Part shown: positions 8,100 to 46,472 of the stretch, piece after piece
Position numbering within the stretch: the stretch's first letter is position 1
Layout: every line of letters starts with the position of its first letter
Source: Patescibacteria group bacterium
GTDB taxonomy: Bacteria > Patescibacteriota > Patescibacteriia > UBA1558 > GWA2-36-10
NCBI GenBank assembly: GCA_041650755.1
Contig: JBAZKN010000004.1
Coordinates: 4,624 to 68,623, forward strand
Direction of reading: 5' to 3'
DNA: 64,000 nucleotides
The notes under the pieces: model-generated
Told to the model about the DNA's origin: nothing
The model's input: only the letters and a program-made list of their open reading frames with translations
The model's database searches: none
Made by a program: the position numbers and the translations under genes

Positions 8100-8127
8100 T
8101 GTGCGTGCGCGAAACCACGAGGGCCCG

Positions 8128-8679
8128 CTACATGGGAATGCGCTCTGACTTGAAAGGCGGAGCCTTGTCGTCGGGCACCGGCAGCTGCCAAGTCCAGAAG
8201 CTGGAGTCCTCCAGAGAGGCGAGAGTGTGTCGAGCCGAAGGATCGGCTATGTGCAGGGAACCGGGCAGCAAGATCGAGCTATTGCCCAGCAGCGCATCTC
8301 TGTCGCTGCTGCAAAACCGCGACAACATCTGTCGAACCTGCTCAACTGTCAAGGTCTCGTGCTCGACGGCCAACAAGGCACCCTCGATGACACAAGTGAT
8401 CTCCAGACAGGTGCCATTGTGGCCGTGAAACTCTTGCACACAACCACCGGGCAGAATGGTGTGGATAGCCTGAGCCTGGACATTGAGGCGACCGATGATC
8501 AGCCCCTTGAAATAGGACCTGACCTCCACGCCGCCCTTCTGAATCATCTGGACGACATGGAGCTCACCGCGGACATCGTCTGGCTGCAAACGACACGAGC
8601 GACCAATATCTTCCCTACCCAAGCGATGATCAATGACGAGCCAACCAAGAGGTGGTTGAGTATACAGCATCGAGCTCAT
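8128..8679 (-). CDS. Hypothetical protein encoded in GC-rich island 1
   Basis: 183-aa ORF with GGGAGGG SD 5-6 nt upstream and a terminator downstream. High GC with a G/C-rich third codon position. The strand choice is uncertain because long ORFs exist on both strands. Confidence 0.35.
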   Translation of the reverse strand: MSSMLYTQPPLGWLVIDHRLGREDIGRSCRLQPDDVRGELHVVQMIQKGGVEVRSYFKGLIIGRLNVQAQAIHTILPGGCVQEFHGHNGTCLEITCVIEGALLAVEHETLTVEQVRQMLSRFCSSDRDALLGNSSILLPGSLHIADPSARHTLASLEDSSFWTWQLPVPDDKAPPFKSERIPM

Positions 8680-8896
8680 TGCAACGCCCTCCCGTAAAGT
8701 TATTCTTGGAATGTTCGAACGTGGACATATTAAATTATAATATCTTTAGAAAATTGTCAATAATATCCAATGTTTTTTATATAGTCAAATGACTTTACTT
8801 TTTCTTTTAAAAATGGGAAAATTAAAATAGTTTCTAAGAGACATATCGGCTGCACTGGCAACAATCGTAAACTCAAACCCTGCCTCAAATAAAAAA

Positions 8897-17588: not shown

Positions 17589-18026
17589 TCAGGAGATCTG
17601 GTAGAGAGGTGTGCCGTGCCGAGAGCGTCGGCACTGCACCACTCCGCTACTCTGCAGAGCATCGAGCACCTGATCCAGTTCCTTCTGGCTGACCTGGCGT
17701 CCATGACGACGGAGCATCCGAAGAATCTCGCCAGATGGTCTGGCATTGCTCTGCCGCAGCAAGACAGCAAGAACTGCATCACGGCTCAAGCTCGGTTGAG
17801 AAGGCTGCGGCGACACAGCCACTGCGGCAACGCGCCGACCACCCGTAGGGCCAAGATCCACGTAGGCACCCACGCCCTTTGGACCACAGCTGGCCTGTGT
17901 GGGCTGAGCTAGCTTCGGTTGTTGCTCACGTCGAGCTCGCTCGACTCTGCCTTGCCTGGCCAGAGCGATGCAACCCCAGACACCCAGCGCCAGAATGACC
18001 AACGAAAGCGCTATTGAGAACCACAT
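17589..18026 (-). CDS. Hypothetical protein in GC-rich island 2: N-terminal TM helix plus a C-terminal winged-helix-like domain
   Basis: 145 aa with GGGGGAGGTG SD. One TM (WFSIALSLVILALGVWGCIAL). C-terminus EILRMLRRHGRQVSQKELDQVLDALQSSGVV is wHTH-like. Visibly GC-rich. Confidence 0.45.
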   Translation of the reverse strand: MWFSIALSLVILALGVWGCIALARQGRVERARREQQPKLAQPTQASCGPKGVGAYVDLGPTGGRRVAAVAVSPQPSQPSLSRDAVLAVLLRQSNARPSGEILRMLRRHGRQVSQKELDQVLDALQSSGVVQCRRSRHGTPLYQIS

Positions 18027-18148
18027 CCTTAGAACACCTCCCCCCTTAAATTATGGGTGAAAATTGACTGTTGATGTACACCTGATGTGAAATCAGAAAA
18101 AATTATAATATTATATATTATTAATTCTGTCAACCCACAAGGCAACCA

Positions 18149-37179: not shown

Positions 37180-37208
37180 TTGACAAAAAAATATATTTAT
37201 GCTATTAT
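37180..37208 (+). promoter_or_regulatory. Sigma-70-type promoter upstream of the NfeD-like/flotillin pair
   Basis: TTGACA-N17-TATTAT lies in host-like AT-rich sequence immediately before the GC-rich island. Confidence 0.45.
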
Positions 37209-37378
37209 GCAACGTTTTGGCTAAACGGCAAAAATGGAGCCTTTGGTTAGCCAAGGGGTTCCTTAAAAGTCATACATCATTGTTGTTCAGCATCGATATC
37301 TGCACACTCAAGGTGCCAGTAGACAGGACGCAGCAATTCAACACTGCTGCCGGTTTCTTCCAACGAAAGGGGTCTACG

Positions 37379-37978
37379 ATGCTCGCAGTCCTGGCAATGA
37401 CCTTCTGGCAAAAGCTGGGGAACGACATCGGAATGATGGTGTTCGCTGCCCTGGCGATGATCGGTGGGGTCTTCACCTTGATCTCCATGATCTTCGGTCA
37501 TGGCGACCACGACGTCGGCCACGACTTCAGCGCGGGCGACCACGACTTCAGCGCGGGCGACCAGGATGACAGTGCCGGCTCGAACTTCTTCTCGGTTCGC
37601 AACATCATGCTCTTCATGACCGGATTCGGCGGCATCGGCATGCTGGCCAAGTACAAGGGCGCTGACTTCATCGAGAGCAGCTTCTGGGGCGCTTTCTCTG
37701 GCCTCATCATGGCGTTGATCGGCTATCTGATCTACCGCGCTCTCTACAAGAGCCAGGCCTCGTCGCACATCGACAACTCGATGTTGCGCGGTTCAATCGC
37801 GCAAGTGGAAGAGCCCATCGTCCAGAACGGCGTGGGCATCATCGTGGCCGGGGGCGAGATCAACCACATCGTCCGCCTCCGAGCCAGAACCAAGGAGGGC
37901 ACGCCGGTCCCGAGTGGCCGCCAAGTCCGCATTCTGGAGGTCAGCGGCACCGAAGCTCTGGCCGAAGCGCAGCAGTAG
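37379..37978 (+). CDS. NfeD-like membrane protein (flotillin partner)
   Basis: GAAAGGGG SD. Two TM helices, an acidic HDFSAGD repeat, then a C-terminal OB-like domain (GVGIIVAGGEINHIVRLRARTK ... RQVRILEVSGT). High GC. The supplied ORF's upstream extension is probably untranslated leader. Confidence 0.6.
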   Translation: MLAVLAMTFWQKLGNDIGMMVFAALAMIGGVFTLISMIFGHGDHDVGHDFSAGDHDFSAGDQDDSAGSNFFSVRNIMLFMTGFGGIGMLAKYKGADFIESSFWGAFSGLIMALIGYLIYRALYKSQASSHIDNSMLRGSIAQVEEPIVQNGVGIIVAGGEINHIVRLRARTKEGTPVPSGRQVRILEVSGTEALAEAQQ

Positions 37979-38042
37979 TCTACACCACCCACCCAACTCC
38001 ATCCAGTGAAGGAGACGAGTCATAGAGCAGGCAACCCACCTC

Positions 38043-39788
38043 ATGCAGTACCTGATCCCGGCGATCGTACTGTTCGTACTGATCGCCTTCGGCGGTGTGA
38101 TCCGTCTGGCGGCCAGGAATTACATCAAGGTCGCGCCCAACGAGGTCGCGATCGTGTGCGGCAGCCGGCACAGGACCTCGGTCATCGTACCCGGCCAGGC
38201 AGAGCCGAAGAGCGTGGTTCGAGGCTTCAGGATCGTCACCGGCGGTGCCTTCTTCAAGATCCCGATCCGTGATCGGGTCGAGATGATGAAGCTGAACCTG
38301 ATGCAGATCTCCGTTCAGGTCGTCAACGTGCCTGACATCAACGGCGTGCGCATCTCGGTCAAGGGCATCGCGAACCTCAAAGTCTTGTCGGACATGGCCT
38401 CGTTGGTCCTGGCCGTCGAGAGGTTCCTGGGCTTTGGCCTGGATTACATCGAGAAGGTAGCCAAGGAGAACCTGGAGTCCAACCTCCGCGCAGTCGTCGG
38501 CAAGATGGCCGTGGAGGAGCTGATCCGTGACCGGACCAAGCTCCAGCAGATGGTCACCGAGGAAGCGGTCCAGGACATGGCCAAGATGGGCTTGGGTCTG
38601 GATCTGATGAACGTCCAGGAGATTTCGGACGAGCAGGGGTACATCGAGGCCTTGGGCAAGAAGAGGACGGCCGAGATCAAGCGCAACGCCACCATCGGCG
38701 AAGCCGAAGCCCTGCGCGACGCCGCCATCAAGTCGGCCGAGGCCAAGCAGGCCGGCGAGACCGCCAAGGCGGCCGCCGAGCAAGCCATCAGCGACGCGAA
38801 CAAGGACATGGACGTGCGCATCGCCGAGAACAATGCCACGGTGCAGGCTCAGAAGGCCAGGATTCCGATCGTCGCCAACCAGGCCGCGGCCGAGGAACAG
38901 CGGATCCTGAACGTCAAGCTGGTCGAGGCCGACAAGGCCAAGACCGAGGCCGAGATCCTGCTGCAGGAAGCGGCGCAGAAGCGACGCGAGGCCGAACTCG
39001 ACGCGACCACGATCATCGAGGCCCAGAAGAGCAAGGAGGCCAAGATCATCGAGGCCGACGCCGAGGCGCAGGCCGCGGAACGCAAGGGCGAGGCCTACCG
39101 CATCCAGCACTCCAAGGAAGGCGAGGGCAACCAGGCCAAGCTGACCGCCGAGGCCAAGGGTCGCAAGGAAGCGGCCAGTGCCACTCAGGCGGAGCTGGTA
39201 GCTCAGGCCGAGGGCAAGAAGGCCGGACTGCTGGCCGACGCCGAGGGCAAGAAGGCCGGACTGCTGGCCGACGCCGAGGGTGTCAGGCAGACTGGTCTGG
39301 CTCGTGCTGCGGGCGTCGAGGCCGTCGGTCTGGCCGAAGGCAAGGCGTCCGAAGCCAAGGCCGCGGCCTACAAGCAGTTGGATGGCCAGGGCATGATGCT
39401 CATGTTCATCCAGCAGTCTCCCGAGGTCATCGAAGCCCTCGGCAAGGCCATCGGCAACGCCATCGCGCCGTCGGCGAACGCCATCGGGCAGGGCCTGGCC
39501 AACATCCAGGAGCTGCGCATGGTGGATCTCGGCGGCGGAATGTCCGGTTCCGCCGGCAAGGACAACATCCTGGGCCAGTTCACCAAGATGCCGATCGAGA
39601 CCATCTACGGCTTGGTGGAGCGGATGAAGGCCACGGGCATGGCTCCGGCCATCATCAAGCTCGCCAAGGACAAGTTCGGGCTCGATCTCGAGTCCGTGTT
39701 CGCCGGCGCCCCGAACCCGAAGCAGTCGCCGAGCGGTCGGGATGCCACGCATCCGGAAGGTGATGATGGCACCGCTGCCGCGGCTTAG
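38043..39788 (+). CDS. Flotillin (SPFH/band-7 domain protein, FloT/YuaG-like)
   Basis: N-terminal hydrophobic hairpin, an SPFH domain, and a long Ala/Glu/Lys-rich coiled coil with EA repeats. High-GC codon usage. Confidence 0.8.
   Translation: MQYLIPAIVLFVLIAFGGVIRLAARNYIKVAPNEVAIVCGSRHRTSVIVPGQAEPKSVVRGFRIVTGGAFFKIPIRDRVEMMKLNLMQISVQVVNVPDINGVRISVKGIANLKVLSDMASLVLAVERFLGFGLDYIEKVAKENLESNLRAVVGKMAVEELIRDRTKLQQMVTEEAVQDMAKMGLGLDLMNVQEISDEQGYIEALGKKRTAEIKRNATIGEAEALRDAAIKSAEAKQAGETAKAAAEQAISDANKDMDVRIAENNATVQAQKARIPIVANQAAAEEQRILNVKLVEADKAKTEAEILLQEAAQKRREAELDATTIIEAQKSKEAKIIEADAEAQAAERKGEAYRIQHSKEGEGNQAKLTAEAKGRKEAASATQAELVAQAEGKKAGLLADAEGKKAGLLADAEGVRQTGLARAAGVEAVGLAEGKASEAKAAAYKQLDGQGMMLMFIQQSPEVIEALGKAIGNAIAPSANAIGQGLANIQELRMVDLGGGMSGSAGKDNILGQFTKMPIETIYGLVERMKATGMAPAIIKLAKDKFGLDLESVFAGAPNPKQSPSGRDATHPEGDDGTAAAA
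39207..39272. repeat. Perfect 33-bp tandem duplication inside flotillin, with a partial third copy
   Basis: GCCGAGGGCAAGAAGGCCGGACTGCTGGCCGAC occurs twice, encoding AEGKKAGLLAD x2. Confidence 0.85.
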
Positions 39789-39837
39789 TAGAACAGACCG
39801 TCATTGACGGGATGATCTCATAGCTGGGTAGCTCTAT

Positions 39838-39872
39838 AGGGGGCAAGGTCCCACGACCTTGCCCCTTTTTCT
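39838..39872 (+). terminator. Rho-independent terminator after flotillin
   Basis: GGGGCAAGGTC-CCAC-GACCTTGCCCC followed by TTTTTCTTTT. Confidence 0.75.
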
Positions 39873-39873
39873 T

Positions 39874-41169
39874 TTACTTATTAAATTGCCGAGAAAAATT
39901 TATAATAGCAAAAAATAAAATACATAAGCCCACCCAAGAAGTCCAAAGATAGTGATCAAATAATCCTAAAGCTAAAACACTGATCAATAAACTAAAGCCA
40001 AAAAAATCCGGCTTGATTTTTTTTCTAAAAAATCTCCAAAGCAAAAATACCAAGCTCAAAAAACCAATTAAGCCGATTTCCCCCAGAGCCAGCAGATAAA
40101 TATTATGAATCGGCTGAAAGTCATAAGACATTTTATGCTTTTGCTCTGACTTTGCCCAGGCCACAAAAGTATTGGTGCCCAAACCTTGACCCAAGATCAC
40201 TTCTTTGGGGTTGCGCCAATTGATCTGTTGCCAGGAGCTGATCCTTTGACTGGTAGAAATATCTTCTAAGCGCCCCCTGGACTCGATCCGATTCAGCCAG
40301 GCATTGGGTAAAAAATAATTTATCAACAAAATAGATAAAATCAACAGTACAAAATATTTGATAATGATTTGCCGCCACAAGTTTAGCTTGTTTTTTAGAC
40401 TAAAAATAAAAATCAACAATATAAATACTAGCAAAGCTAGTAAAGCGCCACGAGAAAAGGTCAAAGCTAGCCCGGCAGTTTGCAGAACTAAGGCAATAAT
40501 AACAATGATTAGATGCCACCAGCTTTTTTTCATGAACTCCCTTGACCACTGACTGTTTTCGCCAGCCTGATAAATCTTTTGCCACCAATAAACGCTGGCA
40601 ACAATGCTGACTAGCAAAAATCCGCCCAAAACATTGGGATGAGTAAGCGCTCCATAAGCTCTTAGCCACCTTTGATCGCCAACCTGCACTACTGACGCGC
40701 CCGGATCTTTGGCTAGATGCTCGGCTAATCCCAGCCACTTATCAGCGGATATCTTTTGGCTAAAAAATTGCCCGATAGCCAGGACAGCTTGTCCTGTGCC
40801 GCTAATAAGCCAAGCTAAAGACAAAAAATCCCAGCTAAATTTTTTACTAAGCAGGGCAAAAAGCAAAGCCAGAATCACCAAGCCTAGATAATAAAAACTT
40901 ATTAACGGCCAGCTGGAAAAAATGGAAATCAAGACTAGGTAAAATAAAAAAATATACAACCATTTGTTTTTTGACCAAGCCAATCTTGGTTTTTGACTAA
41001 AAAAATTCACGACTAAGGCAGCTAATAAAATTATCATGCTGCCATAAAAGCTCAAACGGCCATACTCCCAAACCTGACCGCCTAAACTGGCATCAAAAAA
41101 TATCCATCTGGTCTGCCAGGGCAGCGAAACAATAAAAAGAAAAATAAAAATTTTAGCTAATCTATGCAT
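39874..41169 (-). CDS. O-antigen ligase / Wzy_C-like polytopic membrane protein
   Basis: About 12 TM helices. ALTHPNVLGGFLL resembles the Wzy_C H...G.G...F motif. Start taken at MHRLAK (41169) to avoid overlap. Confidence 0.5.
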   Translation of the reverse strand: MHRLAKIFIFLFIVSLPWQTRWIFFDASLGGQVWEYGRLSFYGSMIILLAALVVNFFSQKPRLAWSKNKWLYIFLFYLVLISIFSSWPLISFYYLGLVILALLFALLSKKFSWDFLSLAWLISGTGQAVLAIGQFFSQKISADKWLGLAEHLAKDPGASVVQVGDQRWLRAYGALTHPNVLGGFLLVSIVASVYWWQKIYQAGENSQWSREFMKKSWWHLIIVIIALVLQTAGLALTFSRGALLALLVFILLIFIFSLKNKLNLWRQIIIKYFVLLILSILLINYFLPNAWLNRIESRGRLEDISTSQRISSWQQINWRNPKEVILGQGLGTNTFVAWAKSEQKHKMSYDFQPIHNIYLLALGEIGLIGFLSLVFLLWRFFRKKIKPDFFGFSLLISVLALGLFDHYLWTSWVGLCILFFAIINFSRQFNK

Positions 41170-42184: not shown

Positions 42185-42206
42185 AAGCGCAGTTTCCTGG
42201 GCAAGT

Positions 42207-42479
42207 CTACCTGGCCGTATATAGGCCAAAAAGCAGCACAACGGCTCCAATATATAGTAATGGGTTACGGAGTATTGTTCTCTGATCCCAGTCCCCGAAT
42301 ACAGTGACCACAAAACCAGCGAACAATATGATATAGATTGCCAGATGGGCGCAGCCGCGCGAAAGCCAGGTAATATGGCCGAAGCCCAGACAATATATGG
42401 CCAAAGCCGTCAGCAAATAAGTGATCACCAACGTGCGTTTGGTGAAAAGGTGCCCCACACCATCGTATTTACGCCACAT
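42207..42479 (-). CDS. Small membrane protein (90 aa, 3 TM)
   Basis: GGGAGGG SD. Hydrophobic. Intermediate GC. Confidence 0.5.
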   Translation of the reverse strand: MWRKYDGVGHLFTKRTLVITYLLTALAIYCLGFGHITWLSRGCAHLAIYIILFAGFVVTVFGDWDQRTILRNPLLYIGAVVLLFGLYTAR

Positions 42480-42566
42480 AACTAGCCCTCCCTGTGCCTG
42501 AAACTACTTATCAAAAGACCATGAACAAGCACAGTGTATTAAAAATCAAAAAAATAGTCAATTCAG

Positions 42567-42750
42567 ACAAAAAGAAAAACTCGGCTGCCGAAGCAGACCG
42601 AGCCGGGCGAGTCGCGAACACGGCGGTGACAGAAACAGACGGGGGGGGGGATGGAAGCGAACGCGCTCAAGTGTGAGGTGGATCTCACGATCGTGGTGCA
42701 GATGTAACACCATACGTCGGAGATCAACCTCCGGAGAAGAACTGGTGATA
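42567..42750 (-). ncRNA. Candidate GC-rich small RNA of about 170-180 nt with its own promoter and terminator (may contain a tiny ORF)
   Basis: Minus-strand TTGACG-N16-TATACT promoter (-35 at 42778-42783, -10 at 42756-42761). The terminator is CTCGG-CTGC-uucg-GCAG-CCGAG (a UUCG tetraloop hairpin at 42579-42601) plus a U-run (42567-42578). Contains a G10/C10 tract. Confidence 0.3.
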
Positions 42751-42796
42751 TTTGTAGTATATCATTTACAAATTATCCGTCAAGCAAAACCTGTGG

Positions 42797-42825
42797 ATAA
42801 AAAAAGGCGGCCAAAAGCCGCCAAG
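42797..42825 (-). terminator. Terminator of the twin-peptide operon
   Basis: GGCGGC-TTTT-GGCCGCC hairpin followed by TTTTTTAT on the minus strand. Confidence 0.6.
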
Positions 42826-42853
42826 CAGGGCAAGGAAAGCCGCCGGGCCAGTC

Positions 42854-42937
42854 CTAGACAACAGGGGCTGAGGTAAACAACCCCATACCAACCAGGATGC
42901 CCAGGACAGCGATCAGAAAAAGCAAACGCTTGATCAT
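42854..42937 (-). CDS. Small hydrophobic peptide 2 of the operon (27 aa, MIKRLLFLIAVLGILVGMGLFTSAPVV)
   Basis: AGGGGG SD. A single predicted TM with N-terminal KR. Paralogous to the upstream peptide. Not in the supplied ORF track because of the size cutoff. Confidence 0.45.
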   Translation of the reverse strand: MIKRLLFLIAVLGILVGMGLFTSAPVV

Positions 42938-42960
42938 GCTGGACCCCCTAAAGACAAGGG

Positions 42961-43047
42961 TCAGTTGATGGCCGCAAGGCTGGCCAGCCCCATGCCAACC
43001 AACACCGCCAGCATCAGAATCAGAAACATGACCCTCTTAATATTCAT
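42961..43047 (-). CDS. Small hydrophobic peptide 1 of the operon (28 aa, MNIKRVMFLILMLAVLVGMGLASLAAIN)
   Basis: GGAGGAGG SD 9 nt upstream, with a promoter upstream. A single TM. Confidence 0.45.
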   Translation of the reverse strand: MNIKRVMFLILMLAVLVGMGLASLAAIN

Positions 43048-43103
43048 ACTGGCTAGCCTCCTCCAACGCTGATTGCCCACAGAAACAACGCAAGTACGCA
43101 CTA

Positions 43104-43132
43104 ATTATCTGCTAAAGTATTTATCCTGTCAA
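43104..43132 (-). promoter_or_regulatory. Sigma-70-type promoter of the twin-peptide operon
   Basis: On the minus strand, TTGACA-N17-GATAAT followed by a leader of about 55 nt ending in the GGAGGAGG SD. Confidence 0.45.
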
Positions 43133-46024: not shown

Positions 46025-46101
46025 GTATTTGTTTTAGAAAATAATTCTAAAAAAGGATAACACAAAAAAACCCGACCGTCAAGAGCTAAGGCAAACTAGG
46101 C

Positions 46102-46137
46102 AAAAATAAAAACCCGAGCCGCTTAAGACAGCTCGGG
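46102..46137 (-). terminator. Terminator for the small GC-rich ORF 46159..46350
   Basis: CCCGAGC-N11-GCTCGGG hairpin with a T-run on the minus strand. Confidence 0.5.
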
Positions 46138-46158
46138 CCTGTTTCCTGCCCTGCCGCG

Positions 46159-46350
46159 CTAGACGCCGGGCAGATGCTGATCAGGGCCACCCGACGAACC
46201 GATATCTGGGAAAATCGGTCCAGGTCGGCGGGAACGAGGCAGTACTTCTGGAGGCGGTTGCCCATCGCTGATTGGAGTAGTAGAACCCGAACAGTCCGGC
46301 TCAATACCGGGGTCTGAGCCAGAACCAGTTGAAAAGCATTTATCTTCCAT
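46159..46350 (-). CDS. Small Gly/Ser/Pro/Asp-rich protein (63 aa) in a GC-rich island
   Basis: AAGGAGAGG SD immediately upstream of MEDKCFSTGSGSDPGIEPDCSGSTTPISDGQPPPEVLPRSRRPGPIFPDIGSSGGPDQHLPGV. Low-complexity, with 2 Cys. Terminator downstream. Confidence 0.4.
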   Translation of the reverse strand: MEDKCFSTGSGSDPGIEPDCSGSTTPISDGQPPPEVLPRSRRPGPIFPDIGSSGGPDQHLPGV

Positions 46351-46472
46351 ATGGCCTCTCCTTGCAGTGCTGGAACGAAACGCTACGAACACAAAACCAC
46401 TATAAAGCTTATATTAAAAAACATAAAAAAGCAAAATTGCTTTAAATCATAAATTTCTGCTATATTTACCGC

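Follow-up and report, generated by a model that had tools for sequence, protein, structure and literature searches.

What is encoded by two very short, hydrophobic open reading frames (ORFs) that lie in tandem on the minus strand, next to uvrA, in a 64,000-nucleotide (nt) stretch of DNA (hereafter the window; contig JBAZKN010000004.1) from a Patescibacteria group bacterium? The original prediction described a self-contained operon for two paralogous peptides of 28 and 27 amino acids (aa), here called sORF1 and sORF2, and likened them to type I toxins and to KdpF/CydX-like membrane microproteins. Its anatomy is correct; its family assignment is not. We find that sORF1 and sORF2 are very probably translated peptides homologous to a signal-peptide module, and on their sequences they are best read as horizontally acquired, uncleaved, single-pass membrane microproteins derived from that signal peptide. 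That they are autonomous, functional membrane microproteins and not relics we put at somewhat better than an even chance.

A signal-peptide module and its stand-alone copies

The module is a Sec-type signal peptide of 27 residues with the consensus MxKRLMFLILsLAvLvGMGLATsAAIA. A metagenome scan with an alignment of four peptides (sORF1, sORF2, and L4a and L4b from the related genome L004) identified five contigs coding for full-length proteins that begin with the module, and a local hidden Markov model matches the N-termini of the full-length carriers at E = 1e-14 to 1e-17. In L082-L085 (63-68% guanine plus cytosine, GC) the carrier is a 467-aa Alginate_exp outer-membrane barrel (PF13372, E = 2e-20), which begins with MFKRLMFLILCLAMLVGMGLATTAAIA followed by GDG... 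and ends ...AKVEF; in L086 it is an unrelated 181-aa protein (P0006) that begins with MVKRLMFIILGLAMLVGMGLATTAAIA followed by KNE.... When a profile made from the window's two peptides only was run by exhaustive hmmsearch against 1.84 billion cluster representatives, 7 proteins came up at E <= 0.001, every one of them matched at residues 1-26. These are sORF1 itself (68.7 bits), members and fragments of the barrel family, and a 222-aa protein (P0014) that begins with MWKRVIFLLVSLAVLVGMGLFTSAAIA followed by GKQ...; E-values in this search, with a library size of 1.84e9, are 6e-7 to 4e-6. Over 26 aa, sORF1 shares 73% and L4a 81-85% identity with the barrel signal peptide, and sORF2 is closest to the N-terminus of P0014 (..LVGMGLFTSAAIA). 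Because there are only seven matches and all are N-terminal, the module is rare and specific, and the similarity is not of the generic kind shared by hydrophobic segments.

Neither the peptides, the locus nor the carriers gave anything relevant in Pfam, NCBIfam or Rfam apart from Alginate_exp on the barrel, and for the peptides at E <= 10 the only Pfam or NCBIfam match is DUF3094 (E = 0.43). A tandem-module profile found nothing at E <= 1 in a search of 5.8 billion proteins, but it is likely that the word index failed to retrieve the candidates (a local test clears the HMMER filters as the cause) and we do not count this result as evidence of absence. A concatenated variant of the query returned barrel proteins and P0046 only, and the latter was discarded as it derives from a low-coverage chimeric contig. 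Viral contigs, plasmids and phages gave no match, although the low-complexity filter of BLAST may hide a query this hydrophobic.

Within an exported protein the signal peptide usually evolves fastest, and it is regarded as an address label to be discarded. The barrel signal peptide breaks this pattern and is the most conserved segment of its family. Some 30 clusters, with identities as low as 39%, are recovered by a search with the barrel protein, and each starts with the module; across 31 barrel proteins (39-100% identical) 14 of its 27 positions are invariant (M1, K3, R4, L8, L12, A13, L15, G17, M18, G19, T22, A24, A25 and A27). No other 27-aa window of the barrel protein is as well conserved: P0011 and P0013 are identical at 26 of 27 module residues and share 45% identity in the mature part, where none of the ~380 later windows scores as high. 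Nucleotide differences in the module among barrel genes are dominated by the third codon position. The barrel is a syntenic core gene in diderm genomes of 68-69% GC (bat operon/MoxR, two DUF507 genes, glycosyltransferase, barrel, aldolase and TonB), and since all of the clusters also carry it, the module is ancestral in this high-GC, barrel-bearing lineage. The barrel family, itself uncharacterised, is represented by L084 (4995-6398), L091 and L093 (10001-11419), and proteins P0001-P0040.

The sporadic copies in AT-rich genomes are best explained, to judge from their sequences, by horizontal transfer of the 5' end of a barrel gene, and this fits the high GC content at third codon positions (GC3) of the sORFs and the presence of several GC-rich islands in the window. 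The two unrelated small exported carriers, P0006 and P0014, sit in GC-rich islands of AT-rich genomes. L088 comes from an assembly in the ENA series to which the window belongs, and with L086 (60-1238), L087 and L089 (1-1084) it makes a set of loci in AT-rich genomes that look orthologous. At the 5' end L086 and L089 have in common a Shine-Dalgarno (SD) sequence and the module, and at the 3' end ~150 nt with a hairpin, a terminator and the next promoter; between these ends they contain unrelated genes, coding for 181 aa and 113 aa in L086 versus 222 aa in L089. The mature protein has been swapped behind a retained signal peptide. Two further departures from the usual pattern are that the module has passed between very dissimilar genomes and onto proteins that are unrelated, and that it exists as selected stand-alone mini-genes minus the cleavage-site residue.

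The stand-alone copies keep one part of the signal peptide and relax another. In all four sORFs a stop codon stands at module position 28, corresponding to +1 of the mature proteins, and L8, L15, G17-M18-G19, L20 and A24 are kept; K3 and R4 are both present in three of the four, sORF2 among them, and L4b retains R4 only. Position 27 (-1) is alanine in 33 of 33 exported carriers (31 barrels, P0006 and P0014), whereas it is N in sORF1, V in sORF2, D in L4a and A in L4b, and T22 and A13 also vary among the sORFs. The peptides thus have the basic n-region and hydrophobic h-region of a signal peptide; in three of the four they depart from its pattern of small residues at -3/-1 (AxA), and in all four instances they lack a following mature domain. 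With the core kept and the -1 alanine lost, constraint appears to have moved from export and cleavage to maintenance of the membrane core, as we would expect if selection acts on the free helix itself.

Conservation, selection and the question of relics

For the synteny comparison, 80 uvrA loci were taken from reference genomes. The gene order is uvrA, a variable slot of 120-1000 nt, a gene for a 313-aa nucleotidyltransferase-like protein and a Wzy-like gene. The original prediction proposed a search for homologous peptide pairs in related genomes, and the same tandem pair is indeed present downstream of uvrA in L004, a relative whose uvrA C-terminus is 93% identical to that of the window at the aa level. 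This equivalent cassette follows uvrA directly and consists of a promoter-like site, a 40-aa transmembrane (TM) ORF, L4a (MVKRFMFLILCCAMLVGMGLALTAAID), a 23-nt spacer with an SD, L4b (MTRGELIFRLAILILSLIVLVGMGLSTTAAIA) and a terminator. The 40-aa ORF (L004 7027-7149; MTKERLKEFGKKALLVVIFFAIVFLITLIRGDEPIYTGPI) is predicted to have a single TM segment, has its own SD, and is without counterpart in the window. Conservation is of the ORFs as opposed to the DNA, so that the original prediction withstands the test of ORF conservation that it had set for itself: L004 keeps the peptides, its non-coding cassette DNA cannot be aligned with that of the window, and the spacer, although 23 nt long in both, has diverged except at the SD.

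sORF1 and L4a differ at 29 of 78 nt (9, 4 and 16 at the first, second and third codon positions) and are identical at 18 of 26 aa, a level reached in none of 20,000 simulations with the same number of randomly placed substitutions; the other two frames contain stops and show low identity. The ratio of nonsynonymous to synonymous substitution rates (dN/dS, or omega), as estimated from 26 codons per pair with dS near saturation, is 0.10 for sORF1/L4a, 0.33-0.42 for sORF2/L4b and 0.24 for both pairs combined. The dS of the sORF pairs is 1.2-2.9, similar to the 1.0-1.4 of uvrA, which has an omega of 0.03-0.05. From the conserved tandem layout, the third-position bias of the differences and the low dN/dS, the tandem pair is older than the split of the two genomes and has been under purifying selection since, although this selection is moderate for the second peptide.

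A mechanism can be proposed on this basis. The basic N-terminus and hydrophobic stretch of ~17 residues would take the peptides to the cytoplasmic membrane through the signal recognition particle and Sec-YidC, with the N-terminus in and the C-terminus out. Signal peptidase I would not cleave them, because no mature domain follows and the -1 alanine is missing from three of the four copies; as free helices resembling a signal peptide they would stay membrane-resident. The conserved core (L8, L15, G17-M18-G19, L20 and A24) may bind a partner, the two paralogs possibly acting together as a heteromer, and the candidate partners are the usual handlers of such a helix: Sec/YidC, signal peptidase or a site-2 protease.

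Several considerations weigh against this interpretation. How the peptides insert, that they escape cleavage and that they bind a partner are steps that we infer from sequence. No partner gene is linked to the cassette, and the 90-aa membrane gene beside it is found in genomes that lack the peptides as well. The stand-alone form is found in two genomes only. The peptides are absent from L002 and L003, which are relatives as close as L004 and in which a small basic protein occupies the slot instead, and from ~20 other Patescibacteria uvrA loci, and none of the remaining loci taken for comparison has them; the cassette, located in a hypervariable intergenic slot, is therefore dispensable. The few codons and high dS behind the omega values count here too, and constraint on sORF2/L4b is moderate (omega ~0.4).

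The alternative that survives best is that the sORFs are functionless leftovers of genes for secreted proteins: recombination in a hypervariable locus would have removed the mature parts and left the promoter, SD and signal peptide as empty 5' ends that are still transcribed and perhaps translated. We regard this as unlikely, though as a reading to be reckoned with. It draws on the passenger swapping behind a retained module in L086 and L089 and on the variability of the slot after uvrA, including the missing cassette in L002 and L003; moreover, the relaxed -1 position and the omega of sORF2/L4b also look like early decay. However, the tandem layout, the 23-nt spacer, both SDs and the stop at position 28 have been kept despite a dS of at least 1.2, and neutral relics would have lost frame, start or SD. 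The omega of sORF1/L4a and the intact core in all four copies argue in the same direction. A tblastn search of the window and L004 with the mature parts of all carriers found no mature-domain remnants, and a decayed full-length gene at the locus was rejected on this ground; a 45-aa alignment past the sORF2 stop was judged to be a chance match.

If the free peptides are functional as membrane microproteins, they would be a clear case of a signal peptide turned into an independent membrane microprotein, and would point to a sequence-specific role of the module in barrel-bearing bacteria. The case also shows that genes of only 87 and 84 nt (sORF1 and sORF2), which standard gene callers pass over, can be under selection in the minimal genomes of Patescibacteria.

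Signalling peptides, mimics, toxins and bacteriocins

A different possibility is that the products are processed or exported signalling or interference peptides, acting outside the producer either as the free product or as a site-2-protease fragment; a variant has the symbiont making a mimic of the signal peptide of a host's barrel protein. The precedent, by analogy, is that of the enterococcal pheromones, which are the last residues of lipoprotein signal peptides, with inhibitor peptides encoded by tiny plasmid ORFs and the inducer and short-ORF inhibitor precursors both processed by the site-2 protease Eep (PMC7117660). The module is far more conserved than a generic export signal needs, which suggests that the freed peptide matters; the same peptide is found at the head of exported proteins, as a signal peptide that can be cleaved off, and as an ORF of its own; and the GC3 of the cassette is high and donor-like. 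Set against this, there is no sequence homology to the enterococcal peptides, the genes around the cassette include no RRNPP-type receptor, Opp/PrgZ-like binding protein or exporter, and it is the whole helix that is conserved, not just a C-terminal 7-8-mer. There is also no sign that this Patescibacteria lineage and the barrel-bearing lineage co-occur, the contigs being from different studies. We consider a signalling role improbable.

The mimic idea can be taken further. A Patescibacteria episymbiont (candidate phyla radiation) would have captured the signal peptide of a barrel protein that looks essential, from a high-GC diderm lineage that is possibly its own host, and its free peptides would mimic it, either by being delivered to the host or by competing at a recognition step dedicated to this signal peptide. 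The barrel signal peptide would then have a second, sequence-specific function beyond Sec targeting, and it is this function that would keep it more conserved than the barrel. The proposal is speculative and we think it very doubtful.

The original prediction's comparison to type I toxin-antitoxin systems, that is, to membrane toxins such as Hok, Ldr, Ibs and TisB silenced by an antisense RNA or by mRNA structure, fares poorly. The small size of the peptides (27 and 28 aa, below the 60 aa typical of such toxins), their hydrophobicity and basic N-terminus, the possession of a promoter and terminator and the location in a variable island all agree with it. Nonetheless, a consensus scan of the plus strand, bearing on the suggestion of an antisense RNA, finds no promoter-like site within or flanking 42797-43132, where the sole plus-strand hairpin is the uvrA terminator stem read backwards. 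The fold of the mRNA is unremarkable (z = -1.95 versus shuffles, insufficient to argue for occlusion of the SD), there are two ORFs on a single mRNA with two strong, well-spaced SDs, and neither Rfam, Pfam nor NCBIfam provides a match. Moreover, many genomes use the same sequence as a plain signal peptide for a conserved core barrel protein, and intrinsic toxicity is hard to reconcile with a helix that serves elsewhere as a routine export signal. The chance that these are type I toxins therefore seems to us very small.

Least probable of all is a leaderless two-peptide bacteriocin, in which paralogous peptides from one operon act jointly on target-cell membranes: the tandem pair is kept as a pair in two genomes and the small-residue spacing A13/G17/A21/A25 could mediate helix-helix packing, but the peptides are uniformly hydrophobic with N-terminal charge only (neither cationic nor amphipathic), no immunity or ABC-exporter gene is linked (the 90-aa membrane neighbour also occurs without the peptides), and the homology is to signal peptides with none to bacteriocins.

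Locus anatomy, neighbouring elements and relation to known systems

The cassette is an autonomous two-gene unit with a base composition foreign to the genome (Table 1). The predicted promoter (TTGACA-N17-GATAAT) is present on the minus strand, and with the terminator it encloses a bicistronic unit, as a self-contained operon requires; both SD-preceded ORFs and the 23-nt spacer with its AGGGGG can be read in the sequence as described. Two details need amendment. The 5' untranslated region (UTR) exists but is somewhat shorter than the ~55 nt proposed, and the terminator hairpin, given as GGCGGC-TTTT-GCCGCC, is there with a 3' arm that is actually GGCCGCC; it is present in both the minimum free energy and the centroid folds of the mRNA. 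Sigma-70 sites matching at least 11 of 12 positions number 7 in the 64-kb window, both strands included, versus a shuffle mean of 2.3. The peptides are, as predicted, paralogous single-helix hydrophobic peptides with basic N-termini: they are 54% identical, with grand averages of hydropathy of 1.8-2.0 and a net charge of +1 to +2, all of it N-terminal. The best 19-residue Kyte-Doolittle windows score 2.5-2.65 in sORF1 and sORF2, and 2.46-2.65 across all four sORFs. The GC-rich island is likewise borne out (local GC of 52-57% versus 42% for the whole window), and GC3 is 0.76 in sORF1 and 0.64 in sORF2, versus 0.41-0.47 in uvrA, uvrC and neighbouring genes.

Table 1. Elements of the sORF cassette and adjacent features, in window coordinates
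Feature	Position	Strand	Remarks
Promoter, sigma-70-type, TTGACA / 17 nt / GATAAT	43132..43104	minus	11/12 consensus match
5' UTR, ~45-50 nt	43048..43097	minus	start inferred from -10 position
SD1, GGAGGAGG	43064..43057	minus	ATG of sORF1 9 nt downstream
sORF1, 28 aa, MNIKRVMFLILMLAVLVGMGLASLAAIN, stop TGA	43047..42961	minus	module copy, stop at module position 28
Inter-ORF spacer, 23 nt	42938..42960	minus	contains SD2
SD2, AGGGGG	42949..42944	minus	ATG of sORF2 6 nt downstream
sORF2, 27 aa, MIKRLLFLIAVLGILVGMGLFTSAPVV, stop TAG	42937..42854	minus	second stand-alone module copy
Intrinsic terminator, GGCGGCTTTTGGCCGCC + T7	42822..42799	minus	7 pairs (6 G-C), loop 3
Second mini transcription unit	42575-42783	minus	directly after sORF terminator; promoter TTGACG-16-TG-TATACT (10/12)
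Terminator of second unit	42592..42580	minus	
90-aa multi-TM ORF	42207-42479	minus	own promoter-like site and terminator
uvrA/uvrC divergent intergenic region	46098-46390	minus	~290 nt, 59% GC, strong terminator hairpin at end

The window belongs to a 100-kb metagenomic contig (ENA ERZ27247363), which uvrA relatives and an NCBI record assign to Patescibacteria (Komeilibacteria/Parcubacteria-like), and the gene calls on the ENA contig omit both sORFs. NCBI entry MFA5127170.1 is sORF1 in a 46-aa GTG-extended form ("hypothetical protein", Patescibacteria group bacterium), and among JGI gene calls it has the 28-aa form. Recoding or read-through of the sORF1 TGA was rejected because translation table 11 gives a normal reading of uvrA and the other genes, and the TGA is followed 8 codons later by another in-frame stop.

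The neighbours of the cassette are uvrA, a second small transcription unit, the 90-aa membrane ORF, and the nucleotidyltransferase-like and Wzy-like genes. The second unit gives a transcript of ~179 nt with a fold z of -3.4 versus shuffles, a GGAGG buried in a hairpin and a run of 10 C; it has no Rfam match and may be a small RNA or a decayed gene. A 51-aa ORF within it was considered as a truncated form of the small basic protein of L002-L004, but no similarity was found. The 90-aa ORF has homologues in L002 and L003 that occupy the equivalent position (E = 1e-8), belongs to no Pfam or NCBIfam family, and appears to be a conserved small membrane protein of the lineage, with or without the peptide cassette. 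The uvrA/uvrC intergenic region has a sub-threshold Rfam match to sX11 (26 bits) and a fold z of -1.8, and may be a non-coding RNA or another small island.

GC-rich islands (55-68% GC) occur in the 42% GC window at 37200-39900, 8100-8700, 17600-18030 and 42200-43100, each with genes of its own, namely an NfeD-like gene together with a Band_7/flotillin gene, ORFs of 183 aa and 145 aa, and the sORF cassette. Of the seven best sigma-70 matches, three (43132-, 37180+ and 18133-) are immediately upstream of island genes. We also note that the metagenome-assembled genomes L002, L003, L004, L009, L011 and others are labelled "uncultured Gammaproteobacteria bacterium" even though their uvrA is 80-95% identical to that of the window; these are probably mislabelled bins.

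Among known systems, the closest relation is to the barrel signal peptide, with which the sORFs share a basic n-region (K3, R4), a ~17-residue h-region with the invariant GMG, and a TxAAxA c-region. They differ from it in having no mature domain, in stopping at +1, in the replacement of the -1 alanine in three of four copies, and in their Patescibacteria host, where an outer-membrane barrel is not expected. The enterococcal prgQ/iCF10 and iad/iAD1 genes resemble them as stand-alone signal-peptide-like ORFs in the 20-30 aa range, alongside related peptides that arise by cleavage of the signal peptides that head full-length exported proteins (PMC7117660). In contrast, the sORFs have no sequence similarity to these, no RRNPP regulator, PrgZ/Opp or conjugation operon and no plasmid match, and where the enterococcal ORFs lead a long plasmid operon the sORFs form a terminated, two-ORF chromosomal unit. 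Hok, Ldr, Ibs and TisB are also products of small hydrophobic peptide genes with their own promoters in variable regions, but the sORFs are bicistronic and have neither an antisense signal nor an occluding fold.

KdpF, CydX, AcrZ and MgtS are bacterial small membrane proteins of less than 50 aa with a single TM helix, and KdpF and CydX are encoded inside the operons of their partner complexes (kdpFABC and cydABX). The sORFs are like them in size, in the predicted single helix, in having their own SDs and in presumably acting through a larger membrane protein that they bind. The KdpF/CydX-like assignment made originally nevertheless does not hold, as the sORF unit, with its own promoter and terminator, lies outside any partner operon and shows no homology or family-model match, and the signal-peptide origin and cross-phylum spread have no counterpart in any of the four. 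Because a defining feature of each was looked for and found wanting, the sORFs do not appear to belong to the type I toxin, KdpF/CydX, pheromone-inhibitor or bacteriocin families; judged by its sequence, the unit would work like a small membrane protein and is descended from a signal peptide.

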